A stretch of DNA of 35,779 bases from assembly GCA_964557475.1 (NCBI GenBank), contig CAZLAG010000001.1:7575-43353 (forward strand), given 5' to 3'. Each line of letters opens with the position of its first letter. Position 1 is the stretch's first letter. Both the position numbers and the translations under genes were made by a program. The stretch comes from an uncultured Gammaproteobacteria bacterium (GTDB lineage Bacteria > Patescibacteriota > Microgenomatia > UBA12405). This document shows positions 3,950-29,665 of the stretch, piece after piece. The notes beneath the pieces are model-generated. The model did no database searches. It was given only the letters and a program-made list of their open reading frames with translations, and was not told the DNA's origin.

Positions 3950-3950
3950 T

Positions 3951-8177: not shown

Positions 8178-8178
8178 A

Positions 8179-8817: not shown

Positions 8818-8846
8818 TTTTTGAAAATTTTGTTTAAACTTATCTT

Positions 8847-13573: not shown

Positions 13574-14457
13574 TGGACTATCATCAACCAGTTCTTTTAG
13601 AAGAAGTAATTTCTACTTTAGGGATCAAATCTGATTCAATTATTGTTGATGCTACTTTGGGTAACGGAGGTCACACCTTAGAACTTCTTAAAAATGGAGC
13701 TATTGTTTATGGTATTGACCAAGACCAAAATAATTTAGAAATATCGACAAAAAGAATTAAAGAAGCTGGTTTGTCAGAAAAATTTACCCCCATATTGTCA
13801 AATTTTAATCAACTTGAAAATATTGTTAATACAAAAGTAAATCAAAAAATTGATGGATTATTAGTTGATTTAGGATTAAGTAAAAATCAACAAATTTCTA
13901 CCAATAGGGGATTTTCATTTAATGATGAAGAGTCTCTTGATATGCGAATTAATCAAAATTCTAATGATCCAACTGCAAAAGATATAATTAATATTGGTTC
14001 AGCAGAAGAGTTATATCAAATTTTTTCCAAAAATAGTCAAGAAATATATAGCCAAGCTCTTATTTCTAAAATAATTTCTGAAAGACAAAAAAAACCAATT
14101 ACTGATGCTAAAAGATTAGCCGATATTATTAGGGGTTTTTATTTAGAAAATAAAATTAGAACTAAAACAGATCCTAGTACTAAAATATTTTTAGCTTTAA
14201 AAATTGCCGTCAATCAAGAATTCAATAATTTAAAACAAATTCTTTCCCAAAGTTTAAAAAGTATAAAATCAAATGGAATAGCTTGTTTTATTAGTTTTCA
14301 TTCGGGAGAAGACAGAATTATTAAACAATTTATTCAACAAAATATTTTAGAAAAAAATATTTATCAAGCTAACAAACCTATTCATCCTTCATTTAAAGAA
14401 GTCAAAAAAAATCCTTTATCTCGCTCAGCTATCTTAAGATCGTATAAAATAGTTTAA
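13573..14457 (+). CDS. rsmH: 16S rRNA (cytosine1402-N4)-methyltransferase RsmH (MraW)
   Basis: Motifs: HQPVLLEEV, VDATLGNGGHT, DLGLSKNQ, RGFSF, ISFHSGEDRIIK and NPLSRSAILR. Confidence 0.92.
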   Translation: MDYHQPVLLEEVISTLGIKSDSIIVDATLGNGGHTLELLKNGAIVYGIDQDQNNLEISTKRIKEAGLSEKFTPILSNFNQLENIVNTKVNQKIDGLLVDLGLSKNQQISTNRGFSFNDEESLDMRINQNSNDPTAKDIINIGSAEELYQIFSKNSQEIYSQALISKIISERQKKPITDAKRLADIIRGFYLENKIRTKTDPSTKIFLALKIAVNQEFNNLKQILSQSLKSIKSNGIACFISFHSGEDRIIKQFIQQNILEKNIYQANKPIHPSFKEVKKNPLSRSAILRSYKIV

Positions 14458-14708
14458 TGCCAAAACACTTTACCTACATTTTAATTTTAATTATCACAAT
14501 TCAGATTGTATTTTCATTTTTTTATTCAAGTGAAATTTTAAACCAAAATGGTCAACTTTATCAAAATCAACTTGAGTATCAAAATCTTAAAATAGAAAAT
14601 CAAAGTTTAGAAAAAAAATTTACTGACTTAACTTCTATTAATCAACTTAACATCCAACAACAAAAACAATCTTTAATTTATATTGATCAAAAAATAAATC
14701 TAAAATGA
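14457..14708 (+). CDS. ftsL: FtsL-like small bitopic division protein
   Basis: 83 aa with one N-terminal TM helix (FTYILILIITIQIVFSFFY) followed by a coiled-coil-like segment. It sits between rsmH and ftsI, as ftsL does in dcw clusters. Confidence 0.6.
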   Translation: MPKHFTYILILIITIQIVFSFFYSSEILNQNGQLYQNQLEYQNLKIENQSLEKKFTDLTSINQLNIQQQKQSLIYIDQKINLK

Positions 14709-16324
14709 ATAATTCTCGATATAAAACAATTTCATTAGCTCTAAGTCTATGTTTTGTTTTTATCATTTGTCGTTTTTTTTATATTCAAGTAATTAAAGGA
14801 TCTGAGTTAAGAGAAAAAGCATTAACTCAAACATATAAGCTTGAAAAAACTATTCCTAGTCGTGGAAAAATATTCTCTTCAGATAAATTTCCTTTAGCTA
14901 TTAATATTACTAATTATAAACTTTCAATATACAAACCAAATTTAGACCAAGATTTAACTCAAATATTTAACATCGTAAACCAAATTCACCCTCAATTTAA
15001 CCAAGAAAACAATAAATTAATTGATTTATTTAAAAATAATTCCAATCAAAAATGGTTGACTTTTAACAGTCTTTTTAATGAAGATGAAAAAAAACAACTC
15101 AATTTACCAGGTCTTATTTTTGAAAAATATGAAAGAAGATATTATCCAGAACAATCAATGGCTCAATCAATTTTAGGATTAGTAGCCAAAAATGATCAAG
15201 GATATGATATTGGTTATGGTGGACTTGAAGGTTATTATCAAAAACAATTAAAAGGAAAAACGGGATTTACATGGTCACCGCAAGACGCCACCGGCAAAGC
15301 TATTCTTACTAAAAAATCATGGAGTTCTATTGCTATAGATGGACAAGATTTGTACACCACTTTAAATCGTAGTGTTCAATTTCAAGTCGAATCAGAATTA
15401 AAAAATGGAGTTGAAAAATATGATGCTGATTCCGGATCTATTACAGTTTTAGACAGTAAAACTGGTGGAATTTTAGCTATGAGCACATTTACAGCAACGA
15501 ATTCTGCCACTCCAAGCGCTACCAAAATAAATTCCATATCAGACCTTTTTGAACCAGGGTCAATTTTTAAACCATTAATTGTCACTATGGCACTTGACAG
15601 TAAATCAATTTCTTCAGAATACATTTGTGATAAATGTGATAAACCCCTAACCATAGGTCAATATACAATCACAAATCACGATAACGCTACTCATCCTAAT
15701 TCAACATTAAGAGACATTATAAAAAACTCTGACAACATCGGTATGAGCCATATTATTGCCAAACTTGGATTAGAAAAATTCTTAGATTATTTTCAAAAAC
15801 TTGGTTTAAATCAAAAAACTGGTATAGATTTACAAGGAGAATCTAGGCCAAGTGTTAAAAAAGATTGGCCAGACATAGATTTGGCTACAGCTTCTTTTGG
15901 TCAGGGAATTGTTGTCACTCAAACTGGTATGATTCAAGCATTTAATACCATTGCTAATGATGGAATGCTAGTTAAGCCACATTTATTAATAAGTAAAAAT
16001 AATAATCCCAAAAAAGTTTTTGATTCAGAAGCTATTAAAGAAATTAAATCAATTTTAAAATATTCCGTTGAAAATGGTGTTGTTTCAACAATGAAACCAA
16101 AAAATTTAGAAGTTTGTGCCAAAAGTGGTACTGCCCAAATTGCTATTAAAGGCGGTTATACTGATTCTTCTACAATTGCTTCATATATTGGATTTTCACC
16201 ATGTGAGAATCCTAAATTTACCATGATTGTAACTATTAACAATCCTAAAAGTTCACCCTGGGGTTCTAGTACTGCTGCTCCTATTTGGTTCGAGCTAGCT
16301 TCAAAAATTGATCATTTGCTATAA
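14705..16324 (+). CDS. ftsI: Class B penicillin-binding protein (FtsI/PBP2-type transpeptidase)
   Basis: N-terminal TM helix and FYIQVIKG. Active-site motifs SxxK (GSIFKP), SxN (KNSDNIG) and K(T/S)G (AKSGTA). Confidence 0.9.
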   Translation: MNNSRYKTISLALSLCFVFIICRFFYIQVIKGSELREKALTQTYKLEKTIPSRGKIFSSDKFPLAINITNYKLSIYKPNLDQDLTQIFNIVNQIHPQFNQENNKLIDLFKNNSNQKWLTFNSLFNEDEKKQLNLPGLIFEKYERRYYPEQSMAQSILGLVAKNDQGYDIGYGGLEGYYQKQLKGKTGFTWSPQDATGKAILTKKSWSSIAIDGQDLYTTLNRSVQFQVESELKNGVEKYDADSGSITVLDSKTGGILAMSTFTATNSATPSATKINSISDLFEPGSIFKPLIVTMALDSKSISSEYICDKCDKPLTIGQYTITNHDNATHPNSTLRDIIKNSDNIGMSHIIAKLGLEKFLDYFQKLGLNQKTGIDLQGESRPSVKKDWPDIDLATASFGQGIVVTQTGMIQAFNTIANDGMLVKPHLLISKNNNPKKVFDSEAIKEIKSILKYSVENGVVSTMKPKNLEVCAKSGTAQIAIKGGYTDSSTIASYIGFSPCENPKFTMIVTINNPKSSPWGSSTAAPIWFELASKIDHLL

Positions 16325-17666
16325 TAAAACAATAAAAATGTCATTAAAATCGATAAATTTTCAAAAAATCAAAAACATCTTTTGGCATTACCCCAAAAAT
16401 TATCTTGTTAGTCTTCGTTATAATTTTCCAGCTAAGAAATTAAAACTCATTGGTATAACCGGAACTGATGGTAAAACTACCACCTGTATTTTAGTTTATG
16501 AGACATTAAAAAAAGCTGGTATAAAAGCTGGAGTTATCACCACCATAGGAGCTAAATATGGTGATAATCAAGAAATTAGTACTGGCCTACACATGACTAG
16601 TCCAGACCCAGAATTATTTCAACAAATACTTAGTCAAATGCTAGCTGCAGGAGTAACTCATGTTGTTTGCGAAGTGACTGCTCACGGATTAGACCAATAT
16701 CGATTTTTAGGATGTCACTTTATAACTGCCGCTATTACCAATACTTCACACGAACATTTGGATTATTACCAAAACATGAACGAATATATTAAATCAAAAG
16801 CTAAAATTTTTGATCAATCAGATTTTGCCATTCTCAATAAAGATGATCTTTCATACAACATCATAAAACCATTAGTAAAATCTCCACTCAGTACTTATAG
16901 CATTAATTCAAAATCTAATTATCAAGCTAAAAATATTAAATTAACTGACAAAAAACTAACCTTCGAAGTTAATAATCTTTCAATAGTTACTGATAGTAGT
17001 TATTACTATCAGATCAATAATATTTTAGTTGCTCTAAATATAATTGACAGTTTAAAAGTAAATCAAAAGTTTTTGCTTGATACAATCAAAAACTTTCCAG
17101 AAACTAAAGGTCGTCGAGAAGAAGTGAATAATGATTTTAAGTTCAAAACTATTGTTGATTTTGCTCATACACCCAATGCTTTAGAAAAAACTCTTTCATC
17201 TCTAAAAAAAATTACTAAAGGCAAAATAATTGTTATTTTTGGTGCTACTGGTGGTAGAGATCAGAGTAAACGTCCGGAAATGGGTAAAGTAGTTTCACTT
17301 TTTTCTGATATTGCTGTAATTACTTCCGACGATACTCGCAATGAAGACATCAAACAAATTAATCAACAAATTATAAATGGTATTGATCATAATAGTTCTC
17401 ATTTTTTTGATATTCAAAATATAGAAAATAATAAACAGATTCAAGAAATACTTAAAATTGCAGATAAAAAATTTACTTATTTTAATATTCCCAATCGACA
17501 AGATGCTTTTAACCTAGCTGTAAAATTGGCCCAAACCGATGATGTTGTAATTGCTTGTGGAAAGGGTCATGAAGATACCATTCTTCATGGCAATACTGAA
17601 TATCCTTGGTCAGAAACTGAAGCATTTAGAACTGCCTTAAAACTAAAAAAATATGATCCAGTTTAA
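16308..17666 (+). CDS. murE: MurE-type Mur ligase (UDP-MurNAc-L-Ala-D-Glu:diamino acid ligase) with a shortened N-terminal domain
   Basis: P-loop GITGTDGKTTT. Other MurE-like motifs: CEVTAHGLDQYR, TNTSHEHLDYY, VDFAHTPNALEKTL, FGATGGRDQSKRP and CGKGHED. The start may instead be the ATG at 16338 (MSLKS...), which avoids the overlap with ftsI. Confidence 0.85.
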   Translation: MIICYNKTIKMSLKSINFQKIKNIFWHYPKNYLVSLRYNFPAKKLKLIGITGTDGKTTTCILVYETLKKAGIKAGVITTIGAKYGDNQEISTGLHMTSPDPELFQQILSQMLAAGVTHVVCEVTAHGLDQYRFLGCHFITAAITNTSHEHLDYYQNMNEYIKSKAKIFDQSDFAILNKDDLSYNIIKPLVKSPLSTYSINSKSNYQAKNIKLTDKKLTFEVNNLSIVTDSSYYYQINNILVALNIIDSLKVNQKFLLDTIKNFPETKGRREEVNNDFKFKTIVDFAHTPNALEKTLSSLKKITKGKIIVIFGATGGRDQSKRPEMGKVVSLFSDIAVITSDDTRNEDIKQINQQIINGIDHNSSHFFDIQNIENNKQIQEILKIADKKFTYFNIPNRQDAFNLAVKLAQTDDVVIACGKGHEDTILHGNTEYPWSETEAFRTALKLKKYDPV

Positions 17667-18249
17667 TTTAAATAAAAATCAATCAATAGAATCAAACTAT
17701 CAACAAGGTTTTCTTCCACAAAGAAATCAAAAAGATCTTTGGTATCAAGATAGTAGTAGTAGATCTAATTTGTTTCAAATTAATCTCAGTTCAGAAAATA
17801 GAAGAATTTTAAGAAAAACAGATAATTTTTCATTTATTAAAACCAATTTAAAAAATTTTGAATTTAATCTTAATATTCAGAAAGAAATTTTTTCCTGGAT
17901 AAAACAATTAGGTTGGGAATTTCCTATAAGTTCGGTTAAAAAAATATTTACCAATCATATCTTTAATTTTGTCTACACTTGGTATGATGAAAACAATCAA
18001 ATAGTTGCTTATTCAATTTGTTATTTTTCAGAAACTATTAGTCATATTGCTTATGTCTTTTATAATCCCAAATATAACCATAGCAATCTTCCAATTAGAT
18101 TGGTTTTACAAACTATAATTGATAGTCAAAAAGAAAACCTTCAATTTTGTTATCTAGGTCGTTTTTCTTCAGAAACTGGATTTTATAAACGAAACATGCC
18201 CGGATTTGAATATTTTAAAGACAACCAATGGATTCCTTATGAGAAATAA
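17653..18249 (+). CDS. Mini ATE/Bpt-like (arginyl/leucyl-tRNA-protein transferase family, GNAT-like fold) putative aminoacyl-tRNA-dependent transferase
   Basis: The C-terminal half resembles the ATE_C/Bpt consensus: IVAYSICYFSETISHIAYVFYNPKYNHSNL...FCYLGRFSSETGFYKRNMPGFEYFKDNQW versus the remembered pattern SavYtFyDPd...SLG...YLGY...KM.YK..F.P.E....W. The N-terminus YQQGFLPQR...F.LSSENRRILRK resembles ATE_N but lacks its cysteines. Judged by eye only. Confidence 0.5.
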   Translation: MIQFNLNKNQSIESNYQQGFLPQRNQKDLWYQDSSSRSNLFQINLSSENRRILRKTDNFSFIKTNLKNFEFNLNIQKEIFSWIKQLGWEFPISSVKKIFTNHIFNFVYTWYDENNQIVAYSICYFSETISHIAYVFYNPKYNHSNLPIRLVLQTIIDSQKENLQFCYLGRFSSETGFYKRNMPGFEYFKDNQWIPYEK

Positions 18250-18288
18250 TTTTTCTACTTACTATTTACTATTAGCTAATTACTAATC

Positions 18289-19662
18289 ATGCATATTCAT
18301 ATTGTCGGAATCGCCGGAACCATGACAGCACCTTTGGCTGCTAATCTTAAAAAAAGAGGTGTTTATGTCACCGGATCAGATCAAGAAAAAATATATCCAC
18401 CAGTCAGTACTATTTTGAAAAAGTCGGATATATTGATCAATTCGATAGATATCAATACAAATATAGATCTAGCCATTATCGGTTCTTCGTATCTTTCTTT
18501 TGAAAAAACAAAAAAAGAGTTTTATCAAATAAAAAAATTAAAAATTCCATATATCTCGGCCACTAACTATTTAGCTCAAAACTTAATTAAAGAAAATTCT
18601 ATTCTAATTGCTGGAAGCTTTGGTAAAACTACAATTACTAGTTTATTGACTTGGATTTTTATAAAAGCCAAAAAAGATCCAAGTTATATGTTTGGTGGAT
18701 ATCCAAAAAATAAGTTAGAACCTTTAAATTTTTCATCTTCGGATCTATCAATAGTTGAAGCTGATGAATCAATAAATGGACTTGATCGAAAAGCTAAATT
18801 TTTATATTATCCAGTTAAACATTTAATTTTAACTAGCGCCGATTGGGAACATAAAGATTCTTATCCTAACCAAATTAAAAATTTTCAAGCCTTTAAAAAA
18901 TTAATCAATAATATTCCCAGTAATGGAACACTTTTGATTAATTCAAATGGTTATCAAACAAAAAAACTAAGTTTATATTCCAAAGCTAAAGTAATTACTT
19001 ATAACTCTTTTACTTCGGATTATTATATAGAAAATATTGAAATTCATAATCATATTACAAACTTAGTAATTCATACTCCAAAAGGACCTTTAGCAATTCA
19101 AACTACTTTAATTGGTCAGTTTAATTTTGAAAATATTCTAGCAGCAGTTAGTTTGGCTGACCATTTAGGAATTAACTTCCGTATTATTCAAAAGGCTGTT
19201 TTTAGTTTTAAAGGTGTCAAAAGACGTCTTGAATTGATCGATAATTTACACAATATTTTATTTTTTGAAGATTTCGCTCAATCTACCAATCGTATTAAAT
19301 CAACCATAGATGCTTTAAAAACTCATTTTCCAGATAGAAAAATTAAAGTCTTTTTTCAACCTCATGCTTCTTTTACACTTTTTAAAACTAATTTGATTGG
19401 ATTAAAAAAATCATTTAGTAAAGCTGACGAAATTGTATTAGGTCCAATTAGGTTTAATCCAAAAATTGATAAAAAATCTAGAACTACCGCCAAGGATTTT
19501 AAAAATGAAATTGGCTCAAAATTAATTTATATCCCTATCGAAAAAGAAATTAAAGCTTACTATATACATCAATTATCATCAAATGATATCCTTGTTTATA
19601 TGAGTTCTGGTGGCCTATCTGGAAACAAAATTATTAAATCTATTATTAGGCATTTTCGTTAA
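18289..19662 (+). CDS. Mur ligase of the Mpl/MurC family, with Mpl-like signatures
   Basis: MHIHIVGIAGTMTAPLAANLKKRGVYVTGSDQEKIYPPVSTIL parallels E. coli Mpl MRIHILGICGTFMGGLA...VTGSD.NVYPPMSTLL. EADESINGLDRKAKFLYYPVKHLILTS parallels Mpl EADEYDCAFFDKRSKFVHYCPRTLILNN. P-loop AGSFGKTT. Comparison sequences are from memory. Confidence 0.8.
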   Translation: MHIHIVGIAGTMTAPLAANLKKRGVYVTGSDQEKIYPPVSTILKKSDILINSIDINTNIDLAIIGSSYLSFEKTKKEFYQIKKLKIPYISATNYLAQNLIKENSILIAGSFGKTTITSLLTWIFIKAKKDPSYMFGGYPKNKLEPLNFSSSDLSIVEADESINGLDRKAKFLYYPVKHLILTSADWEHKDSYPNQIKNFQAFKKLINNIPSNGTLLINSNGYQTKKLSLYSKAKVITYNSFTSDYYIENIEIHNHITNLVIHTPKGPLAIQTTLIGQFNFENILAAVSLADHLGINFRIIQKAVFSFKGVKRRLELIDNLHNILFFEDFAQSTNRIKSTIDALKTHFPDRKIKVFFQPHASFTLFKTNLIGLKKSFSKADEIVLGPIRFNPKIDKKSRTTAKDFKNEIGSKLIYIPIEKEIKAYYIHQLSSNDILVYMSSGGLSGNKIIKSIIRHFR

Positions 19663-19668
19663 ACATTT

Positions 19669-20997
19669 ATGTCAAGATATATTATTTCTGGCGGCAAAAA
19701 ACTTCAAGGTGAAATTTCAATTCGTGGTGCAAAAAATGCTAGTTATAAACAAATTATTGCTTCTTTACTTTCAGACCAAACAACTCAGCTTACCAATATT
19801 CCTAATATATCAGACATAAAAATAACCGAAAGTATAGCGAAATCTTTAGGATCTGAAATAAATTATTGTGGAGAACATTGTGTTCAAGTTACTACCCCAA
19901 AAATTAAAAATAATACTGTCCCTCAAGGTACTGGTACAAAATCACGCAGTTCATTTATGTTTTCTGCACCACTATTGGCCAGAAATGGTCAGGCTATTGT
20001 GCCCACACCAGGAGGAGATCGTTTGGGTAGTCGACCTCTAGATCGTTTGATCGATTGCTTTTCCAAAATGAATATAAAAACAGAGGAAACGGAAACTAAT
20101 TTAATTTTTAAAACTGAAAAAATTCTTCCAACTCATTATATTTTTAACAAGCCTTCACATACAGTAACTGAAACAGTTATTATGACTGCAGTTTTAACTA
20201 ATGGTGAAACTGTATTAGAAAATTGTGGTCAAGAACCTGAAATTGATGATCTTATTGTTCTTTTAAATAAAATGGGGGCCAAAATTCAAAGAGATTTAGT
20301 AGATCCAGGTAAAATTATAATTCAAGGAGTATCGTCCTTAAAAGGAACCGAACATCAAGTAATCTGTGATCGTAATGAAATTGTTACCTTCGTTTGTGCT
20401 GCTTTAGCTACCAAAGGTAGTGTCAATATTCTCCGAGCTGATCCTAAAACTGTCAAAACATTTTTAGAAACCATTGAAACTATGGGGGCCAAAGTTCAAA
20501 CAGGACAGGAAGAAATTAGTGTCTATTGGGATCAACCTTTAAAGGCTATCAATATAGAGACAGGACCAGAACCTGGCTTTATGACCGACTGGCAAGCCTT
20601 ATTTTCCATATTACTAACCCAAGCTGTCGGCTGTAGTTCAATCATCGAAAAAGTATACCCAAGTCGTTTTCAACATATTGCCAATTTGCAAAAAATGGGA
20701 GCAAAAGTTCAACTATTCAATCCAATGATTGATAATCCAGATACTTATTATCAATTTAATCCTGAAAGTGATAGGCCAGAATTCTTTCATGGTGTGAAAA
20801 TTTACGGACCAACTAAACTCAATCCAACTAATTTTGTTATTGATGATCTTCGAGCTGGAGCTTCTACTACTATTGCCGCATTAGTGGCCCAAGGTACATC
20901 AACTATAGACGGTGTTGAATTTATTGAACGAGGTTACGAAAAATTAGCTGAACGACTTTCTTCATTAGGTGCTAACATTGAATATATAAAAATATAA
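19669..20997 (+). CDS. murA: UDP-N-acetylglucosamine 1-carboxyvinyltransferase MurA (Asp in place of the catalytic-loop Cys)
   Basis: N-terminus YIISGGKKLQGEISIRGAKNAS. The loop PTPGGDRLGSRPLDRL aligns to E. coli LPGGCAIGARPVDLH. C-terminal motif DLRAGASTTIAAL. Confidence 0.92.
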   Translation: MSRYIISGGKKLQGEISIRGAKNASYKQIIASLLSDQTTQLTNIPNISDIKITESIAKSLGSEINYCGEHCVQVTTPKIKNNTVPQGTGTKSRSSFMFSAPLLARNGQAIVPTPGGDRLGSRPLDRLIDCFSKMNIKTEETETNLIFKTEKILPTHYIFNKPSHTVTETVIMTAVLTNGETVLENCGQEPEIDDLIVLLNKMGAKIQRDLVDPGKIIIQGVSSLKGTEHQVICDRNEIVTFVCAALATKGSVNILRADPKTVKTFLETIETMGAKVQTGQEEISVYWDQPLKAINIETGPEPGFMTDWQALFSILLTQAVGCSSIIEKVYPSRFQHIANLQKMGAKVQLFNPMIDNPDTYYQFNPESDRPEFFHGVKIYGPTKLNPTNFVIDDLRAGASTTIAALVAQGTSTIDGVEFIERGYEKLAERLSSLGANIEYIKI

Positions 20998-20999
20998 TT

Positions 21000-22034
21000 A
21001 TGATCCATCTTTATCTAGGTTTATTGTTGTTTTCTTTCTTTATCACCAGTACCTTAGTTGTTCCATTTATTAATCTTCTTTATAAACTCAAATTTCAACG
21101 TCAAAAGCAACAAACTACAGATTTTCAAAATAATCGAACCCCAATATTCGATAAATTTCATAATTTAAAACAGGGAACTCCGGTCGGCGGTGGACTTCTT
21201 ATCATTATTTCTGTCTGTATTATGTTTATTATTTTATTTCCTTTACTCAAATTTTCAAAAATATTTATCTCATCAAACTTTCAAATAAACTACGAATTAG
21301 AAATAATTTTCTTTACTTTCATAAGTTTTGGAATTCTTGGTCTTTACGATGATATTTATAAATTCTTTGGTTTTAAAAAAACTGGTTTTTTTGGTTTAAG
21401 ATTGATTCACAAACTCATACTTCAAATTGTCTTATCTTTAATTATTTCTTTTTTAATTTATTTCAGACTTAAGATTGATTTTTTCTATATACCATTTTTT
21501 GGACCATTACACTTAGGTTTCTTTTTTATTCCAATATCTACATTAATTATTACCGCCTTTACTAATTTTTTTAATATTACCGACGGACTCGATGGATTAT
21601 CATGTGGGTTATTAATGATTGCTCTTTTTGCTTTTTGGTTTTTATCTAATAGCTCGATGGATACTCCTACATCATTATTTTTATCTCTTTGGTTAGGTTC
21701 TTTAATTGCTTTTTTATATTTCAATATCTATCCAGCTCGTATTTGGCTAGGGGATGTTGGTGCACTTTCATTTGGTGCTACATTTGCCGTTATTGCTATT
21801 CTTTTAGGTAAAATAGTTCCTTTAATTATTATTGGTTCTCCATTTATAGTTGAAGGTATGAGTAGCGCTATTCAAATATTTAGTAAAAAATATTTGGGTA
21901 AAAAAATATTTCCTGCTGCTCCTTTACACTTGACTCTTCAAAAAATTGGTTGGGAAGAACCTAAAATTGTCGCTAGAGCCTGGTTGGCTGGTATTATATT
22001 ATCTATTTTTGGACTATGGTTGGGACTAAACTAA
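21000..22034 (+). CDS. mraY: Phospho-N-acetylmuramoyl-pentapeptide transferase MraY
   Basis: Polytopic membrane protein. Motifs: KQGTPVGGG, YDDIYKF, NITDGLDGL and GDVGALSFG. Confidence 0.92.
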   Translation: MIHLYLGLLLFSFFITSTLVVPFINLLYKLKFQRQKQQTTDFQNNRTPIFDKFHNLKQGTPVGGGLLIIISVCIMFIILFPLLKFSKIFISSNFQINYELEIIFFTFISFGILGLYDDIYKFFGFKKTGFFGLRLIHKLILQIVLSLIISFLIYFRLKIDFFYIPFFGPLHLGFFFIPISTLIITAFTNFFNITDGLDGLSCGLLMIALFAFWFLSNSSMDTPTSLFLSLWLGSLIAFLYFNIYPARIWLGDVGALSFGATFAVIAILLGKIVPLIIIGSPFIVEGMSSAIQIFSKKYLGKKIFPAAPLHLTLQKIGWEEPKIVARAWLAGIILSIFGLWLGLN

Positions 22035-22585
22035 TTAAAGAGTTAAAATTAGAAATTAATAAATACGTTGGAATTCCTTATTGGAAAAATGTTTTAAAAG
22101 ACGGCAAAATAATCAAAGAAGGGTTTATGGGCGGAAAGGGGAATGCAAAAGATATTGCTTTAAAAACAGTTGAGTTAGCTAATAACCAAAATTTAAAATT
22201 ACTCAATCTTTCAGAAAAAGAAATTTACAATTTTCAAAAGAAAAATAAAATCGGCATTGATTGTTCTGGATTAGTTTGTCAGTTATTGATCTTTTACGGA
22301 AATTTAATTGGTAAAGACATTAATTTAAATCCACGAAAAACTTCTGCCGATATGCTTACTTCAAAACCATTATCCAAAAAAATTAATAACAACGATATTC
22401 AAACTGGCGATTTAATTCGTCAAAAAAATGGTCATCATGTTTTGTTTGTTGTTGAAAAAAACGATAGTGTTATCACTTATGTTGATAGCTCTAGAGAAAA
22501 TAGAGGTGTTCACTACGGTCAAGCAAAATTAACTGACTCTAATTTTGAAAATCAAGGAATATTTAGATTATTTCTCTTCGACTAA
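22016..22585 (+). CDS. NlpC/P60-family cysteine peptidase-like protein with no signal peptide
   Basis: Motifs: YVGIPY, catalytic Cys in GIDCSGLVCQLL, and His in GDLIRQKNGHHVLFVV. The N-terminus MVGTKLIKELK is hydrophilic, with no signal or TM segment. Overlaps the mraY 3' end by 19 nt. Confidence 0.7.
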   Translation: MVGTKLIKELKLEINKYVGIPYWKNVLKDGKIIKEGFMGGKGNAKDIALKTVELANNQNLKLLNLSEKEIYNFQKKNKIGIDCSGLVCQLLIFYGNLIGKDINLNPRKTSADMLTSKPLSKKINNNDIQTGDLIRQKNGHHVLFVVEKNDSVITYVDSSRENRGVHYGQAKLTDSNFENQGIFRLFLFD

Positions 22586-22732
22586 TTCTCGATAATTTAA
22601 AGGATTAATGGAGGTAATTTCAACCTCAGTTCCACATTCGTTACATTCCAAAATATCACCAACTTCTTCATTACCATTAATAATAATTTCTGCCCCACAA
22701 TCAGGACATACAACTTTCTTTGTTCCTGTCAT
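22568..22732 (-). CDS. 54-aa Cys4 zinc-ribbon protein, LysW-like (amino-group carrier protein fold) but without the EDWGE tail
   Basis: Hand translation of the minus strand gives MTGTKKVVCPDCGAEIIINGNEEVGDILECNECGTEVEITSINPLNYRELVEEK*. It is below the ORF-track size cut-off. It fills the only large gap (190 nt) in the cluster. The pattern CPxCGAE-x12-C-xx-CG-x-E-x-E...PL matches Thermus LysW as I remember it: MVGTCPECGAELRLENPELGELVVCEDCGAELEVVGLDPLRLEPAPEEAEDWGE. Confidence 0.65.
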   Translation of the reverse strand: MTGTKKVVCPDCGAEIIINGNEEVGDILECNECGTEVEITSINPLNYRELVEEK

Positions 22733-22775
22733 ATTTAAAATAAAAAATATATAATTGAGTTAACTAGATCATTAT

Positions 22776-23597
22776 ATGACAAACACACCTTTAGTTAAAA
22801 TAGACAATTTTTATTTAAAAAGGGAAGATCAAAATCCCACTGGATCAGCCAAAGATAGAGCCATTCCATTTCAAATTATTAATCTTAAACAACATGGTTT
22901 TACTAAAGCTGTTATTTCTAGCACTGGTAACGCTGCTATTTCAGCAGCTCATTTTTGCCAACAAAACCAAATTGAATTAACTATATTTTTATCTTCAAAA
23001 GTAAATCAAAAAAAATTATCTCTCTTAAAAAAATTCTCTTCAGAAATTATTTTAACTCCACAGCCAATAAGTGAAGCTTTTAAATATTCTAAAAACAATC
23101 AAACTTATTTACTTCGTCAGTCTACAGATCCATCAGCCCTAATTGGATATCAACAAATTTCTATTGAAATACTAAATGACTTACCTCAAATTACTAGTAT
23201 TTTCATTCCCGTAGGTAGCGGTACCACTCTTTTAGGTATTTCTCAAAAACTTCCTCCAACAGTAAAAATATTTGCTATTCAATCAGCTGCTAATTGTCGA
23301 ATTTCCAAATCATTTGATAAAAATTTTATTCAAGAATCACGTTTAATTACTGACGCATTATCAGCCAAATTTTTTCCCAAAAAAAATGATATTATTTCAG
23401 CCATTAAAAAATCAAACGGATCTGCTTTCACAATTCAAAACAAAGATATTTTATTAGCCAATGAATTTCTTGAATCCAAAAATATCACTACTTCACTCGA
23501 AGGAGCATTAGCCTTAGCAGGCTATCAAAAAGCCATCAATAATAAAATTGAAATTGGACAATTCCCCGTTATTCTTTTGACAGGTGCTAAACGATGA
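22776..23597 (+). CDS. Compact fold-type II PLP-dependent enzyme (threonine synthase-like / Trp-synthase beta superfamily)
   Basis: FYLKREDQNPTGSAKDRA carries the PLP-lysine motif; the Lys codon is at 22851-22853. Other motifs: SSTGNAAISAA, the Gly-rich loop PVGSGTTLLGI and TSLEGALALAG. At 273 aa it is shorter than canonical ThrC. Confidence 0.7.
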   Translation: MTNTPLVKIDNFYLKREDQNPTGSAKDRAIPFQIINLKQHGFTKAVISSTGNAAISAAHFCQQNQIELTIFLSSKVNQKKLSLLKKFSSEIILTPQPISEAFKYSKNNQTYLLRQSTDPSALIGYQQISIEILNDLPQITSIFIPVGSGTTLLGISQKLPPTVKIFAIQSAANCRISKSFDKNFIQESRLITDALSAKFFPKKNDIISAIKKSNGSAFTIQNKDILLANEFLESKNITTSLEGALALAGYQKAINNKIEIGQFPVILLTGAKR

Positions 23598-24724
23598 ATC
23601 TTTTAAACATTCTTCAAGAAAGTAATTATGATTTTTTCTTCATCGGTGTAGATGATTTTTTAAGTATTAACGTCCCAGAATTAAAAAATTTTTATACTCT
23701 AAACCCAAAAAATTTAGATATTAAAATTGATATTAAAAATTCCGGTGTCTTTTTATCAAATCCAAAAGTTATTGAATATATTAAAAAAAAATCTATTCAA
23801 ACTAATCATCAAGTTGTAATTATTCCTTTTAAGCCATCAGGAAAAATAGAACATATCTGCCAAAAAGAAAATTGGATTTATGCTGCTAATCCAGCCAAAC
23901 TCAATCGATTTTTAGAAGATAAAATAAATTTTTCCAATCTTTGTCAAAAATTTAATTTTCCCACTATACCATCTGTAATCGATGATTTTAATCAACAAAA
24001 TTTTCAAAAATATCAACAAATTTTAAATAATAATTTAGTCATTCAAACTCGTTTTGGTTGGGCTGGAAAAAGTACTTTTCATTCGTCAAGTTGGGAAGAA
24101 ATAGAAAATAAAATTCCGATTGACACTCCAGTAAAATTTGCTCCTTTACTATCTGGTTATTCACTTATCAATAATTGTTGTCTTACTTCAAAAGGACTCA
24201 TTCAAAGCCCTCCTGGTCTTCAATATACCGGCTTGTCTCAGTTTACATCAAACCCTTTTACCACAGTCGGTCGGCAATGGCCATCCTATGCACCGGTAAA
24301 TGTTGTTGAAAAAATTAGATCGTTAACTCAAAAATTTTCAGATATTTTAAAAGTAATAAATTATAAAGGTTTTTTTGGTTTAGATTTTTTTATTAGTAAA
24401 GATGAAGTATTTATTTTAGAATGTAACCCAAGGCTTACAGCATCTTTTGAACTCTATCATCAAATTGAAACTAAAAATAATCTTAACTCATTATTTTTAT
24501 TTCATTTATTTTCATTTTTACCACTAAAAATTGAATTTGATATTTCTCAAGAAATTAAAAGATTTTATAATCCAGCTATAATTGGTTCTGAAATCACTAA
24601 AAAAGACAAATTTAACAATACTTGTGGCCGTTACCGTGATTTTATTCCATTCTCACTACAAAGTGACCCTATAGATATTGCCCCATCAATCATCAAATCT
24701 GCCAATGAAACCGACCATATCTAA
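23594..24724 (+). CDS. ATP-grasp superfamily ligase, subfamily unresolved
   Basis: The C-terminal catalytic region YKGFFGLDFFISKDEVFILECNPRLTASF (ECNPR at 24419-24433) resembles CarB-like and ATP-grasp_3/4 motifs (E-x-N-P-R). LVIQTRFGWAGKST looks like a central-domain loop. The ATGA overlap with the PLP enzyme gene suggests translational coupling. Confidence 0.7.
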   Translation: MNLLNILQESNYDFFFIGVDDFLSINVPELKNFYTLNPKNLDIKIDIKNSGVFLSNPKVIEYIKKKSIQTNHQVVIIPFKPSGKIEHICQKENWIYAANPAKLNRFLEDKINFSNLCQKFNFPTIPSVIDDFNQQNFQKYQQILNNNLVIQTRFGWAGKSTFHSSSWEEIENKIPIDTPVKFAPLLSGYSLINNCCLTSKGLIQSPPGLQYTGLSQFTSNPFTTVGRQWPSYAPVNVVEKIRSLTQKFSDILKVINYKGFFGLDFFISKDEVFILECNPRLTASFELYHQIETKNNLNSLFLFHLFSFLPLKIEFDISQEIKRFYNPAIIGSEITKKDKFNNTCGRYRDFIPFSLQSDPIDIAPSIIKSANETDHI

Positions 24725-25874
24725 ATCACCACTTATCTTTTTAATTTCAACTCTAATAATTATTGGTATCATTTTTATTTCCATTGCCTCATTAAGTGAA
24801 GCTACTACCAGTATTGGTGATAAATTTTTCTTTTTAAGAAAACAAAGTATTTGGTTAGTTATTAGTCTCTTTGTATATTTTATTTTTTCTAAAATTAAAC
24901 TTGAAACTATTAAAAAATATATTCCATTATTTTTCATAGTTTCTGTTATTGCTTTAATATTAGTTATCGTTCCTGGACTTAGTGATGAAACTCTTGGTGC
25001 TCATCGCTGGTTGAATTTAGGTATTATTAAATTTCAACCTTCAGAGATTTTAAAACTTAGTTTAGTTTTGTTTTTTGCCAAACTTTTCTCTAAAAATGAA
25101 AATTGTCTTTTGAAAAATTTAATTATCTATTTAGGTATTCCATTTGTTCTTATAATAATTGAACCAAATTTAAGTACTGCTATTTTGATTTCAGCTATTT
25201 CAATCTCTCTTTACTATCTTGGTGGTGGAAAAATCGGAACTCTTTTTGTATTTTGTGCATTTTTAATTTCGGTTAGTTTAATTTTGGTTTTAGTTTCTCC
25301 ATATAGATCTGCTAGATTAAAAACCATGCTCGATCCTCAACAAAATCAAGAAACAGCCTCTTATCATAGTAACCAAATTACTTTAACTCTTGCCTCTGGT
25401 GGTTTTTTTGGTAAAGGTTTTGCTAATTCAGATCAAAAATACAGTTTTTTACCCAAAATTTCCACTGATTCAATTTTGGCAGTTATTGGGGAAGAAGCCG
25501 GATTTATTGGATTATTTTCAATCATAATAATTTATATTTCATTAATTTCTTATTTATTTAAATTAGCCAATATTATTCCAGATAAATTTCAATCACTTCT
25601 TATTTCCGGAACTGCTCTTTGGATTGCTTATCAAACTTTAATTAATATTTCAGCCATTGCTGGTATTATTCCTTTAACCGGAGTGCCATTACCTTTTATT
25701 TCATATGGAGGTTCATCTTTAACCACCTTAGCTGCAGCTATTGGGTTAGTTCACAATATCGAAAAAAATAACTCAACCCTGCTATACTCAAATCATGAGT
25801 CAAAAGATAACAAAGACCATCATCATCACCGGCACTCATCTAACTCCAGCCCTAGAACTAATTCGTCAACTTAA
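24678..25874 (+). CDS. ftsW: SEDS-family peptidoglycan glycosyltransferase FtsW
   Basis: Polytopic membrane protein. Motifs: HRWLNLGIIKFQPSEILK, SYHSNQITLTLASGGFFGKGF, LPKISTDSILAVIGEEAGFIG and PLTGVPLPFISYGGSS. The start may be the ATG at 24705 (MKPTISK...). A His-rich tail overlaps murG. Confidence 0.9.
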   Translation: MPHQSSNLPMKPTISKSPLIFLISTLIIIGIIFISIASLSEATTSIGDKFFFLRKQSIWLVISLFVYFIFSKIKLETIKKYIPLFFIVSVIALILVIVPGLSDETLGAHRWLNLGIIKFQPSEILKLSLVLFFAKLFSKNENCLLKNLIIYLGIPFVLIIIEPNLSTAILISAISISLYYLGGGKIGTLFVFCAFLISVSLILVLVSPYRSARLKTMLDPQQNQETASYHSNQITLTLASGGFFGKGFANSDQKYSFLPKISTDSILAVIGEEAGFIGLFSIIIIYISLISYLFKLANIIPDKFQSLLISGTALWIAYQTLINISAIAGIIPLTGVPLPFISYGGSSLTTLAAAIGLVHNIEKNNSTLLYSNHESKDNKDHHHHRHSSNSSPRTNSST

Positions 25875-26886
25875 AAACGATCCAAAGTTTAATTGGAATA
25901 TTTCTTATGTTGGGCGAAAATTTAACTCTTCTGAATCTCAAGAAAAATCAATTGAATCAGTGATTATTCCCAAATTAAATGTAAATTATTTTAGTATTAA
26001 TTGTGGTAAATTTGATCGAAAATATTTTCCCAACACACTCCATGGTATTAGCAAAACTATAAAAGGTTTTTTTGAATCTAAAAGAATAATTAATCAAATT
26101 AAACCAGACATTATTGTTTCTTTTGGTGGTTACGTTTCTGTTCCAGTTGTTATTAATGGTTGGTTTAATCATGTTCCAAGTATTACCCACGAACAAACTT
26201 CTACCAATAGTCTTACCACCAAAATTAATAGTTTTTTTGTCACCAAAGTAGCTCTATCTTTTGATAATCCAAAACAATTAACCAACCTTCCCAAAAACAA
26301 AATTGTAATTACTGGTAATTTACTTCGCCATGAGTTATTTACCCAAACAATCAAAATTCCCTCATTTAAAGAATTTTCTAAACCAATGATTTTTATTACC
26401 GCTGGTAATCAAGGTTCTCATTCTATCAATTTAGTTTTAAAAAAATTAATTCCATCTCTTAGTAAATTTACTATTATTCATCAAACAGGGGAGTTAGATT
26501 TTAATAATTTCAAAAAACTTACTACAAAATACCCTAATTATCACCCTTTCCCTTATATCGAAACTAAATATATGGGTTGGATTTTTAAAAATTCTTTATT
26601 AATCATAAGTCGATCAGGTGCCAATACTAGTCAAGAAATTGTTGCTTTTTCCAAAAATTCTATACTTATTCCATTACCCAAAAGTCAACAAAACGAACAA
26701 TTATTAAATGCCATTTGGGTTAAAAATATTTTACCCAATCGAACAATTATTATTGACCAATCACAATTAAGTTCGAAAACATTACTTTCAGCTATAGATA
26801 GCTTATCTGTATTTAAAGCAAATAGTAAAATTAATAAAACTACTGCCAACTTAAAATTACTTCAATTAATTCATGAAATTATTTAA
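25795..26886 (+). CDS. murG: Lipid II-forming UDP-GlcNAc transferase MurG
   Basis: GT28 layout. N-terminal IIITGTHLTPALELI sits in place of the GGTGGH loop. Other motifs: VVSFGGYVSVP, FITAGNQGSH and SRSGANTSQEI. It lies downstream of ftsW, as in dcw clusters. Confidence 0.85.
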   Translation: MSQKITKTIIITGTHLTPALELIRQLKNDPKFNWNISYVGRKFNSSESQEKSIESVIIPKLNVNYFSINCGKFDRKYFPNTLHGISKTIKGFFESKRIINQIKPDIIVSFGGYVSVPVVINGWFNHVPSITHEQTSTNSLTTKINSFFVTKVALSFDNPKQLTNLPKNKIVITGNLLRHELFTQTIKIPSFKEFSKPMIFITAGNQGSHSINLVLKKLIPSLSKFTIIHQTGELDFNNFKKLTTKYPNYHPFPYIETKYMGWIFKNSLLIISRSGANTSQEIVAFSKNSILIPLPKSQQNEQLLNAIWVKNILPNRTIIIDQSQLSSKTLLSAIDSLSVFKANSKINKTTANLKLLQLIHEII

Positions 26887-27250
26887 ATTAATTGCATTTT
26901 TTCTACCTCTAATAGCTGTAATTATTTTTGTAATAGTAAGATTTTATCCTCAGCCAATCACCCCTAAATCAAATAAAAACGATTTTTACGATAAATTAAA
27001 TAATGCACTACAAACAAGCAAATTAATTCCAATTAATATGACTGTTAGAGATTATTTAAACGAAGTTGAATTTTATCTCCAAAATGAAGATAACCAGTTA
27101 ACTAAAATTATTATTTCGACTCAAAAAGACCCATATTGGCAAATTGTATCTTTGCAAGATTTTTCTAAAACAGCTAAAATCAATAATAAACAAATTTATT
27201 TAGTCGATCTAAGTATCGATCATCCGTATGCAACATTCAAAAACAATTAG
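26873..27250 (+). CDS. Small bitopic membrane protein at the ftsQ/divIB position
   Basis: 125 aa with an N-terminal TM helix (LIAFFLPLIAVIIFVIV) and a short extracytoplasmic domain. The assignment rests on synteny between murG and ftsA only; no POTRA motif is recognisable by eye. Confidence 0.4.
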   Translation: MKLFKLIAFFLPLIAVIIFVIVRFYPQPITPKSNKNDFYDKLNNALQTSKLIPINMTVRDYLNEVEFYLQNEDNQLTKIIISTQKDPYWQIVSLQDFSKTAKINNKQIYLVDLSIDHPYATFKNN

Positions 27251-28484
27251 TGGAATAGATATAGGTACATCAAAAGTTACTACTATTATTGGTCAATACC
27301 AAGAAGTAGAGGATAAATTTAACATTATTGCTGTATCTTCAATCCCTGCGACTGGTTTTAGAAAAGGTCAGATAATTAATATTGATCAAGCTTCAAATAC
27401 TATCACTCAAAGTATTGAATCTGCCGAAAGAATGGCTGGTTTTCAAATTAATTCAGCATCAATTTCTTTATCGGCTCCTTATATTGAATCAATTAATTCT
27501 CACGGAGTTGTTGCCATAAGTAATCCAAATGGCGAAATTGATCAAAACGATATTACTCGAGTTATTGAAGCAGCTAAAGCTATTGCTATACCTCCAGGTA
27601 AAGAAATTATTCATATAATACCAATAAAATATACTGTTGACGGTCAAGAAGGAGTCGTTGATCCAATTGGAATGAATGGTACTAGACTTGAAGTGGAAAC
27701 CCATATTGTCTTAGCTTCAACTCCATCTCTTAAAAATCTTCGAAAATGTTTAGAAGATATTGGTATTCATATTAATAGTTTAATTTTTTCTGGCCTTGCA
27801 GCAGCTAGAGCCAGTCTTACTGAAACCGAAAAAGAATTAGGGGTAGCTCTTGTGGATATTGGTGGAAGTATAACCACTATTACAGTTTTTAATGAAGGTG
27901 CACCTATATTTTCTTCTGTTATTCCAGTTGGTGCCAATAATGTTACCAATGATCTTGCAATTGGTTTAAGATTTTCACTTGAAGATGCTGAAAAAATTAA
28001 GCTCAAATTAAACAAATTAGTTGAAAATAAAAATTTTGACGATGAAATAGAGCTTTCTAAACTAGATATCGATACTGTTGATAAGAATCGAAAAATATCT
28101 ATTCAAACCGCTACAAATGGCATTATTAAACCAAGACTTGAAGAAATTTTCAATCTAATTTTTGACCAATTACAAACCGCTAATTTACATCATGTTATAC
28201 CTGCCGGTATTGTTCTTACTGGTGGTGGAGCTCAAACAGTCAATGTTAAAGAAATCTGTGAGAAAATAATTCCACTTCCATTTAGAATTGCTTTTCCACC
28301 AAAAATGGGTGGAATAGTAGATGATATTCTAAATCCAGCTTATACTAGTACCATTGGACTTCTTATGACCGCTCGAGAATCTAAAGATACTAATAATAAT
28401 TCATCAAACAATAGAAAAATGAAATTAAACTTTGGTGGACTACTTGGTAAATTCAAAAAATTAATTGAACCAATATTACCGTAA
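27228..28484 (+). CDS. ftsA: Cell division protein FtsA
   Basis: Actin-fold motifs GIDIGTSKV, LVDIGGSITT and LTGGGAQ. C-terminal amphipathic helix GGLLGKFKKLIEPIL. Confidence 0.92.
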   Translation: MQHSKTISGIDIGTSKVTTIIGQYQEVEDKFNIIAVSSIPATGFRKGQIINIDQASNTITQSIESAERMAGFQINSASISLSAPYIESINSHGVVAISNPNGEIDQNDITRVIEAAKAIAIPPGKEIIHIIPIKYTVDGQEGVVDPIGMNGTRLEVETHIVLASTPSLKNLRKCLEDIGIHINSLIFSGLAAARASLTETEKELGVALVDIGGSITTITVFNEGAPIFSSVIPVGANNVTNDLAIGLRFSLEDAEKIKLKLNKLVENKNFDDEIELSKLDIDTVDKNRKISIQTATNGIIKPRLEEIFNLIFDQLQTANLHHVIPAGIVLTGGGAQTVNVKEICEKIIPLPFRIAFPPKMGGIVDDILNPAYTSTIGLLMTARESKDTNNNSSNNRKMKLNFGGLLGKFKKLIEPILP

Positions 28485-28486
28485 CT

Positions 28487-29665
28487 ATGGGATTAGTAAA
28501 AACATTAACTGGACAATTTGCCAAAATTAAAGTTATAGGAGTTGGTGGCGGTGGAAATAATGCTATTAATTCCATGATTTCTGAAGAGAATATCATGGGA
28601 GTTGATTTTATTGCAGTCAATACCGATTCACAGGCTTTATTAAATTCTCTGGCTCCAATCAAAATTCAAATTGGTGAAAAACTTACAAAAGGTTTAGGAG
28701 CTGGTGGTAATCCACAAACAGGTCAAAAAGCAGCCGAAGAATCGAGAGAAAGAATAAAAGAAGTTTTAGCAGGCACTGATATGGTTTTTGTCACTGGTGG
28801 TATGGGTGGTGGCACCTGTACTGGTGCTGCTCCTATTATTGCTCAAATAGCAAAAAAAGAATTAGGTATTCTAACAATTGGAGTTGTTACTAAACCATTC
28901 GCCTTTGAAGGTACTCGTCGTATGACTAATGCTGAAGAAGGTATCTCTCAACTTCGCAATAACGTTGACACTCTCATTGTAATACCTAACCAAAAAGTCA
29001 TGGAAGTTGTTAACGATAAAGCCACTCTTCTTGAAGCTTTTAAAATTGCTGATTCAGTTCTCAATAAGGGCACTAAAGCTATAGCAGATTTAATTACTAA
29101 TCCAGGGCTTATAAATCTTGATTTTGCGGATATCAAATCAGTTATGAGCAACGCTGGTACAGCTCTAATGGGTGTAGGAGAAGCAGAAGGAGAAAATCGA
29201 GCTCAAAAGGCTGTTGAAGAAGCTATAAATTCTCCATTAGTTGAGGTAGAAATTCAGGGAGCTAGGGGAGTCTTAATTAATATTACTGGAGGTCCAGACA
29301 TTACTATGGCTGAAATTGAAGAAGCTGCTAAAACTATCACTGAACGAAGTGCTCCAGATGCTAATATTATTTTTGGTACGACTATTGATAAAGAATTAAA
29401 AGGAAAAATTAAAATATCTGTTATTGCTACTGGTTTTGATAATACCAAAAGTCAATTTTACAGTTCAATCAAAAAACCACTTCCTCAATTAGAAAAAAAT
29501 CCTATTAATCAGCCATCACCAATCACTTCAAATAATTCATTTGAAACAAAAGAATTAAGTGATAATCAAATTAAAAGATTTTTAGGTGATAAAGATATTC
29601 CAACTGGGGTAGATATTATCGATGAATTTGACATTCCAGCTTTCCTAAGAAAAAACGGTGTATAA
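28487..29665 (+). CDS. ftsZ: Cell division GTPase FtsZ
   Basis: Motifs: [15 protein letters not shown], the tubulin signature [13 protein letters not shown], and the conserved C-terminal peptide DIPAFLRK. Confidence 0.97.

Follow-up and report, generated by a model that had tools for sequence, protein, structure and literature searches.

A LysW-like zinc-ribbon protein ending in lysine, a candidate carrier encoded among peptidoglycan synthesis genes

The DNA analyzed here is a stretch of 35,779 nucleotides from contig CAZLAG010000001.1 of GenBank assembly GCA_964557475.1 (GTDB lineage Patescibacteriota; Microgenomatia), referred to below as the window. On its minus strand, at positions 22568-22732 and within a dcw (division and cell wall) gene cluster, lies a gene for a 54-residue zinc-ribbon protein related to LysW, an amino-group carrier protein (AmCP). 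The translation, profile matches and conservation described below establish it as a real, strongly conserved gene. By sequence, the product belongs to a distinct LysW-like subfamily ending in Glu-Glu-Lys, here called the EEK-tail subfamily, which recurs together with a fold-type II pyridoxal phosphate (PLP) enzyme and an ATP-grasp ligase. We consider it somewhat probable that the protein is a carrier, or handle, for a small-molecule substrate, and that the system feeds peptidoglycan stem-peptide synthesis near the MurD step. An initial annotation of this DNA, made from the letters alone, had proposed a LysW-like carrier with an ATP-grasp partner. It had missed three partners, namely the intervening PLP enzyme, an overlapping NlpC/P60 peptidase, and MurD in other lineages.

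The LysW-like gene and its lysine-ended tail

Translation of 22568-22732 on the minus strand gives MTGTKKVVCPDCGAEIIINGNEEVGDILECNECGTEVEITSINPLNYRELVEEK followed by a stop codon (54 residues plus stop), identical to the peptide quoted in the initial annotation. The protein carries two CxxC knuckles, is acidic as LysW is (pI 4.1, net charge -8), and ends in PLNYRELVEEK. Its gene had been described as hidden, which is true of the open reading frame (ORF) track used at the time; public pipelines do call it, and public records label the EEK-tail protein LysW. It had also been described as one of only two minus-strand genes, and the single other minus-strand ORF of at least 100 residues in the window is at 35125-35718.

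The G+C content of the window is 30% and chance ORFs of 30-83 codons are frequent in it, so the length of this ORF alone carries no significance. The Pfam model Zn_ribbon_LysW (PF21344) matches the protein with 45.7 bits (E = 5e-12; gathering score 27), and a word-indexed search returned 14 homologues with 65-89% identity, all of about 54 residues, one of which carries the name LysW and comes from a Candidatus Shapirobacteria metagenome-assembled genome (MAG). Conservation was assessed in 80 loci, each from another GTDB species, which were retrieved via the neighboring PLP enzyme (PALP) and not via the LysW-like ORF. A LysW-like ORF lies directly upstream of PALP on the opposite strand in 77 of the 80, the remaining 3 ending at a contig edge there, so that an intact homologue is present in 77/77 testable loci. 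The 79 unique sequences are 50-59 residues long, keep all four cysteines and end in E-L-[IV]-E-E-K. Over 605 unsaturated pairs, the median Nei-Gojobori dN/dS is 0.22; the value for the comparison with the nearest relative is 0.11. Despite the abundance of chance ORFs of 30-83 residues, the possibility that this is one of them, lying in an intergenic gap, is practically negligible given the Pfam match, the 77/77 loci, the dN/dS of about 0.2 and the invariance of the four cysteines and the tail, and it was ruled out. An RNA element in the gap was likewise rejected, as an Rfam search of the window returned no RNA family.

Two loci contain broken genes. At L061 (5799-5976) the LysW-like ORF is split into two frames, and in L002 the Mur ligases, PALP and ATP-grasp genes are fragmented. 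Since neighboring genes are broken too, errors made during assembly or sequencing are a more probable cause than pseudogene formation.

A family profile searched against PDB sequences finds 3wwl (Thermus LysW) and 5k2m (Thermococcus LysW) with E = 4-5e-8, and the four cysteines of the zinc ribbon are invariant among the EEK-tail relatives. By sequence the protein is therefore classed as a true homologue of the globular zinc ribbon of LysW, but not as LysW/ArgW proper. The NCBIfam model TIGR01206 scores 43.7 bits, under its cut-off of 53.2, its alignment ending at model position 45 of 54 and thus leaving out the last nine positions, where the EDWGE tail lies; NF041070 scores 32.2 bits (cut-off 75). 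Apart from the LysW models, Pfam and NCBIfam returned no match specific to the EEK-tail subfamily. The likeness to LysW/ArgW noted initially therefore stands for the zinc ribbon, which passes the Pfam cut-off, and fails for the tail and for both NCBIfam models.

The attachment point of canonical LysW is its C-terminal Glu, whereas the last residue here is Lys and the EDWGE ending is not present; canonical relatives recovered by the same profile search do end in EDWGE. In canonical systems, the ATP-grasp enzyme LysX attaches aminoadipate or glutamate to LysW via the α-amino group of the substrate, and LysZ, LysY, LysJ and LysK, encoded in a gene cluster, then process the LysW-tethered substrate (PMC12998189). 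A Pfam search of window ORFs of at least 100 residues revealed no LysZ/Y/J/K-type gene (kinase, reductase, aminotransferase or M20 hydrolase). None was found either among the genes identified in related loci by marker-gene maps and Pfam annotation of called genes, the search covering these loci and not whole genomes. A RimK-family LysX is absent from the window and from about 110 related loci. It is thus highly improbable that the protein is a canonical LysW/ArgW carrier of lysine or arginine/ornithine biosynthesis, as suggested by the public name "lysine biosynthesis protein LysW" and by the Pfam domain; both NCBIfam cut-offs are missed, the tail and the type of ATP-grasp are wrong, the processing genes are not found nearby, and the hosts have reduced genomes. 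This candidate was rejected.

The two systems nevertheless share several features. Like the LysW/ArgW AmCPs of Thermus, Sulfolobus and Thermococcus, the protein has a homologous two-CxxC zinc-ribbon domain, is about 54 residues long and strongly acidic, has at its C-terminus a flexible tail whose length is fixed and whose last residue is invariant, and is encoded adjacent to an ATP-grasp ligase. They differ in the tail, which here ends in E-E-K and is about 5-7 residues shorter than the EDWGE tail. The terminal residue is Lys, offering an amine and an α-carboxylate, instead of Glu with its γ-carboxylate. The ATP-grasp partner is of the PylC type or biotin-carboxylase-like instead of RimK/LysX, and the cassette further includes MurD, an NlpC/P60 peptidase and a fold-type II PLP enzyme, in place of the kinase LysZ, the reductase LysY, the aminotransferase LysJ and the metallohydrolase LysK. 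The genomic context is cell-wall synthesis rather than Lys/Arg biosynthesis.

An exhaustive profile search over 1.8 billion representative proteins gave 573 matches, the nearest of which form a broad set ending in EEEK or EEK, with canonical EDWGE proteins also included. Pooling all sources, the EEK-tail subfamily comprises 140 unique K-ending sequences. The initial annotation had remarked on the unusual tail of the window protein, and in this subfamily the terminal Lys is found in 140/140 members; it is also present in all 95 members whose gene context was verified. Position -3 is Glu in 133/140 and position -2 is Glu in 131/140, with Q, T, D or H in the other 9. Exactly 10 residues follow the conserved Pro past the second knuckle in 121/140. 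The tail pattern of the subfamily is P-[LFV]-x4-[LIVF]-E-E-K with Lys last, to which the window protein conforms. An invariant last residue on a tail of fixed length has the look of a reactive swinging arm. Because position -2 varies and the Lys never does, the functional group is likely to be the terminal Lys itself (its ε-amine or free α-carboxylate) and not a Glu exposed by trimming.

Among the longer LysW-like matches, inspected by eye without a domain search, we recognized no fusion of the LysW-like domain with an enzyme; those inspected are tandem zinc ribbons or have no recognizable enzyme domain. One member ending in EEEEK (P0359; L108, 735-884) follows a MarR gene and precedes a same-strand gene on a 1.1-kb contig, without the usual divergent PALP. 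In the literature we found no description of the cassette or of a Lys-ended LysW relative.

The conserved cassette and its enzymes

In the window, the dcw cluster runs in the order MraW, an FtsL-like ORF, FtsI, a MurE-like ligase, an ATE_C-like protein, a MurC/Mpl-like ligase, MurA and MraY. This is followed by the NlpC/P60-like gene, the LysW-like gene (minus strand), PALP, ATP-grasp, FtsW, MurG, a 125-residue protein, FtsA and FtsZ. The block from MraY through NlpC/P60, LysW, PALP and ATP-grasp to FtsW is invariant in about 80 Shapirobacteria species. The LysW-like protein, a ThrC-like PALP and a PF02655 ATP-grasp occur together in all 95 context-verified EEK-tail members, which come from Shapirobacteria, CPR2, Gottesmanbacteria, Dormibacteria and further contigs of 31-70% G+C.

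In CPR2, Candidatus Dormibacteria (70% G+C) and Gottesmanbacteria, the cassette lies outside the dcw cluster, in the order NlpC/P60, MurD-like ligase, LysW-EEK (opposite strand), PALP and ATP-grasp. In further contigs, the LysW-PALP-ATP-grasp trio is located between murD and ftsW, or after mraY. A scan centered on the ATP-grasp added 16 loci, with PALP and a divergent LysW-EEK gene wherever the upstream sequence sufficed; most of these also hold MurD and NlpC/P60. At one locus the trio adjoins MraY and two FemAB genes. Locus L113 (52% G+C) contains five co-directional, overlapping genes encoding LysW-EEEEK, NlpC/P60, a MurD-like ligase, PALP and ATP-grasp, and L111 and L114 start in the same order. 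The opposite-strand orientation of the LysW-like gene is otherwise kept across phylum-level distances, these three loci being co-directional.

The gene adjoining the LysW-like gene is NlpC/P60 in the window and the MurD-like gene in most non-Shapirobacteria lineages. Since the Shapirobacteria loci hold no MurD-like gene, the link of MurD to the cassette is drawn from the other lineages. The Mur ligase of the cassette is MurD-like in all cases (TIGR01087, 184-261 bits; cut-off 212), and may be either the housekeeping MurD or a specialized paralogue. In three of these ligases (L085 6078-7478, L087 6140-7678 and L113 7066-8565) the N-terminal 50-130 residues could not be aligned to the MurD model, the TIGR01087 alignments beginning at model positions 52-88. 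In the L085 enzyme, two positions of the D-Glu site appear to be substituted (K319→Q and S415→Y in E. coli numbering), an observation to which we give no interpretive weight.

The PLP enzyme (PALP; 22776-23597, plus strand) is a threonine-synthase-like protein of 273 residues, identified by profile matches, motif conservation and an AlphaFold2 (AF2) model (predicted local distance difference test (pLDDT) 89). The PLP lysine, K26 in the motif GSAKDR, is invariant, and the enzyme also keeps an S-S-T-G-N loop resembling that of threonine synthases. Its gene is always the first one divergent from, or downstream of, the LysW-like gene. A Foldseek search found threonine synthase, threonine deaminase, Ser and Asp racemases and O-acetylserine sulfhydrylase (OASS) to be about equally near. 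OASS and SbnA are among the sequence matches, and the fold matches include PDB entry 7djq, the CysK-CysE tail complex.

The ATP-grasp ligase (23594-24724, plus strand; 376 residues) is encoded by the next gene, with a 4-nt overlap between its start and the stop of PALP. The distance from the start of the LysW-like gene to that of the ATP-grasp gene (23594) is 862 nt, in agreement with the 0.9 kb given initially, and the linkage is strongly conserved across related loci. The suggestion that this enzyme is a LysX-like partner did not hold. It matches PF02655 (ATP-grasp_3), which we take to be the PylC type, the uninformative PRK06524 and, weakly, MfnD and PurK, with no match to the RimK/LysX family at E <= 1 among Pfam and NCBIfam-type profiles. 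In its AF2 model (pLDDT 93.8), the Foldseek neighbors are PurK, biotin-carboxylase domains, PurT and a Streptomyces ATP-grasp peptide ligase, while its profile finds biotin carboxylase, PurK, carbamoyl-phosphate synthetase (CPS) and Ddl among PDB sequences. LysX and RimK are not among the top PDB profile or fold matches. The Mg/ATP motif E276-x-N278-x-R280 is invariant, also across phyla.

The NlpC/P60-like protein (22016-22585, plus strand; 189 residues) is a papain-fold cysteine peptidase, assigned from Pfam and its catalytic residues. It lacks a signal peptide, and its N-terminus has no hydrophobic stretch. Among 93 orthologues, at least 95% retain Cys83 in the DCSG motif and His141, and the protein is probably an active cytoplasmic enzyme. 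Conservation of these residues, of the ATP-grasp motifs and of the PLP lysine suggests that all three partner enzymes are active.

The 3′ ends of the NlpC/P60-like and LysW-like genes are convergent and share 18 nt (22568-22585), an overlap that had been pointed out in the initial annotation and is borne out by the coordinates. The 3′ end of the LysW-like gene also overlaps or abuts a convergent MurD gene in L087 (6140-6174) and L085 (6077/6078). Such overlap leaves no room for terminators, so that convergent transcripts would overlap.

Possible functions of the cassette

In the carrier role that we favor, the ATP-grasp enzyme would spend ATP to join a substrate through an amide bond to the terminal Lys of the flexible tail. 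The PLP enzyme would then transform the tethered amino acid, whose α-amino acid end would be free, after which the NlpC/P60 peptidase would release the product, which would enter stem-peptide synthesis at the MurD step or close to it. Since fold-type II PLP enzymes require the α-amino acid end to be free, the cargo would have to hang by its side chain.

The most economical specific version, carrier-tethered conversion of L-Glu to D-Glu, is speculative, and we regard it as possible without calling it likely. The γ-carboxyl group of L-Glu would be joined to the ε-amine of Lys54, the PLP enzyme would epimerize the tethered Glu at its α-carbon, and NlpC/P60 would selectively free D-Glu, which would be used by MurD. 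The net result would be a route that is driven by ATP, runs in one direction and serves as an alternative to glutamate racemase. Individual steps have parallels in known enzymes. PylC acylates the ε-amine of Lys, MfnD forms γ-glutamyl amides, and Asl joins D-Asp to the ε-amine of Lys3 in peptidoglycan precursors. In CysM/CysO and CysK/CysE, the C-terminal tail of a partner protein enters the active site of a fold-type II PLP enzyme. MurD2/MurL demonstrates that epimerization of a tethered Glu exists, and the NlpC/P60 family classically cleaves γ-D-glutamyl-Lys and γ-D-glutamyl-diaminopimelate (DAP) bonds.

Three known systems resemble parts of the proposal. In the CysO-CysM-Mec+ system of Mycobacterium tuberculosis, the C-terminal tail of a small protein likewise enters a fold-type II PLP enzyme, and the product is built on the tail and then released by a dedicated peptidase. 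CysO, however, has a ThiS/ubiquitin fold and a GG-thiocarboxylate and is adenylated by MoeZ, whereas the present protein has a zinc ribbon and a Lys tail; Mec+ is a JAMM metalloprotease and not an NlpC/P60 enzyme, and the system includes no ATP-grasp and no Mur ligase. MurD2/MurL of Xanthomonas is a non-MurI solution for stem-peptide position 2, encoded beside a MurD-type ligase as the cassette is, in which a tethered Glu is turned into its D form. That tether is UDP-MurNAc-L-Ala rather than a protein, MurL is an ATP-dependent epimerase and not a PLP enzyme, and no carrier protein, ATP-grasp or NlpC/P60 is involved. In RacD-AslA (Lactococcus/Enterococcus) and in PylC, an ATP-grasp enzyme acylates a lysine ε-amine, and in RacD-AslA it is paired in an operon, as here, with an amino-acid-converting enzyme, which in that case makes a D-amino acid for peptidoglycan. 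The acceptor is Lys3 of UDP-MurNAc-pentapeptide for Asl and free Lys for PylC, in contrast to the proposed protein tail. The RacD racemase is PLP-independent, unlike the enzyme here, and neither system has a carrier protein.

Several points weigh against the carrier role. The classical NlpC/P60 substrate has γ-D-Glu on the α-amine of Lys or DAP, and not on the ε-amine, and the window NlpC/P60 scores 22.7 bits in Pfam, just below the cut-off of 23, although its orthologues from other lineages score clearly. Neither sequence nor fold of the ATP-grasp enzyme, with PurK, biotin carboxylase, PurT and Ddl as neighbors, gives a substrate, and the fold neighbors of the PLP enzyme (ThrC, threonine deaminase, Ser/Asp racemases and OASS) are comparable and single out no reaction type. 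Shapirobacteria have no MurD-like gene in the 36-kb window or within 6 kb (about 80 loci). Finally, murD adjoins ftsW in ordinary dcw clusters, so that part of the adjacency of MurD to the cassette could be historical.

The best-placed alternative, which we think rather unlikely, is that the LysW-like protein is not a carrier but a regulatory or scaffold subunit, its acidic body and tail binding the PLP enzyme, the ATP-grasp or MurD in the manner of the CysE tail that plugs CysK. Acting on free substrates, the PLP enzyme and the ATP-grasp would in that case form a racemase/D-amino-acid-ligase pair, like racD-aslA, that makes a cross-bridge or D-Glu substituent. Operons combining a racemase with an ATP-grasp are well established in peptidoglycan synthesis (RacD/Asl), Ser/Asp racemases and ThrC are equally near to the PLP enzyme in fold, its fold matches include the CysK-CysE tail complex, and nearby FemAB or ATE_C-like transferases point to stem-peptide elaboration. 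However, the only known role of the LysW family is that of a covalent carrier, and a terminal residue that never varies, on a flexible tail of constant length, is the mark of a reactive handle. A scaffold would also have to be reconciled with a dedicated cytoplasmic peptidase that is co-conserved and, in some lineages, translationally coupled.

It is less likely still that the terminal Lys is itself the cargo, the protein being a pre-loaded, N-α-protected lysine that keeps the amino-group-carrier logic of LysW. In this scheme the PLP enzyme would modify the Lys side chain, for example by β-replacement of an aminoacrylate onto the ε-amine, NlpC/P60 would excise the product and the ATP-grasp would reload Lys onto the ...EE end. 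The scheme gives a role to every gene of the cassette and is consistent with the invariance of Lys next to a variable position -2. Fold-type II PLP enzymes do carry out β-replacement with amine or thiocarboxylate nucleophiles from a protein tail (SbnA, CysM/CysO), and OASS and SbnA are among the sequence matches of the PALP. It leaves unexplained the tight coupling to MurD, and not MurE; if the ATP-grasp reloads Lys, the encoded Lys need not be invariant; and no such diamino acid is known in peptidoglycan.

A small peptide whose tail contains Glu and Lys, encoded together with a peptidase and an ATP-grasp, also recalls graspetide-like precursors of peptides that are ribosomally synthesized and then post-translationally modified (RiPPs), in which the ATP-grasp would macrocyclize the tail by a lactam between Lys and the side chain of Glu, and processing by the peptidase would yield a secreted peptide. 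This is very unlikely, as a folded, conserved zinc ribbon is atypical of a leader peptide, the cassette is housekeeping-like, being universal in a class-level lineage and lying, with MurD, inside the dcw cluster, no transporter is co-conserved, and the ATP-grasp family matches are not of the graspetide type.

Genomic setting and biological significance

The LysW-like and PALP genes are divergent and separated by 43 nt (22733-22775) containing AAAATATATAAT, which recurs in many Shapirobacteria loci, where the intergenic length is 14-58 nt (L005-L084). In many species, ATTAT stands immediately 5′ of the PALP start codon. This region may be a shared bidirectional promoter; where it is just 14 nt long, the promoters must fall within the coding regions. 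A promoter and terminator scan around the LysW-like gene performed no better than on shuffled sequence.

The dcw cluster of the window (13573-29665) contains only two Mur ligases, MurE-like (16308-17666) and MurC/Mpl-like (18289-19662; TIGR01082, 242 bits against a cut-off of 335), and no MurD, MurF, MurB, Ddl, MurI or Alr was found in the 36-kb window. Between the two ligase genes lies a gene (17653-18249, plus strand) for a 198-residue protein with a weak match to ATE_C, the C-terminal domain of arginyl-tRNA-protein transferase (FemAB and L/F-transferase fold). It is kept in that position in about 60 Shapirobacteria loci and in L090, and may encode an aminoacyl-tRNA-dependent transferase acting on the stem peptide. 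The statement that the LysW-like gene occupies the only sizeable gap of the cluster (22586-22775) roughly holds, because a 247-nt gap at 14458-14704 is filled by an 83-residue ORF between MraW and FtsI (14457-14708, plus strand). The N-terminal hydrophobic helix and Gln/Leu-rich, coiled-coil-like region of its product, together with its position, fit FtsL.

Upstream of the dcw cluster, 452-10778 (plus strand) is a cell-surface polysaccharide locus, encoding GT2 and GT4 glycosyltransferases, a Wzy-like polymerase, a nucleotidyl transferase, an initiating sugar transferase (Bac_transf) and a 643-residue DUF4012 protein. A second FtsW/RodA/SpoVE-family gene (32607-33605, plus strand; 332 residues) lies downstream of IleRS. 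Loci of the Shapirobacteria type also occur in GTDB records titled "uncultured Gammaproteobacteria bacterium" (L005, L006, L008-L011 and many others) or "Candidatus Methanoperedens sp." (L064), which look like mislabeled or contaminated MAG records.

LysW-type carriers are known solely from lysine and arginine biosynthesis and a few secondary-metabolite pathways. We tentatively propose, as a minority possibility, that the cassette represents an unrecognized carrier-dependent step in peptidoglycan-precursor synthesis, widespread in Patescibacteria, or the candidate phyla radiation (CPR), and extending to Dormibacteria-like and other bacteria, in which an amino acid tethered to Lys, most plausibly Glu on its way to D-Glu, is freed for MurD. 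If so, this would be the first LysW-family carrier in cell-wall synthesis and the first to use Lys rather than Glu as its handle, and it would provide a third route to D-Glu. Carrier-protein metabolism would be extended to peptidoglycan synthesis, with a handle, partner enzymes and a pathway that are all new for it. The label "lysine biosynthesis protein LysW" is wrong in hundreds of genomes, where it overstates the apparent biosynthetic capacity of reduced genomes, and the cassette could account for the supply of stem-peptide building blocks in many ultra-small CPR bacteria.

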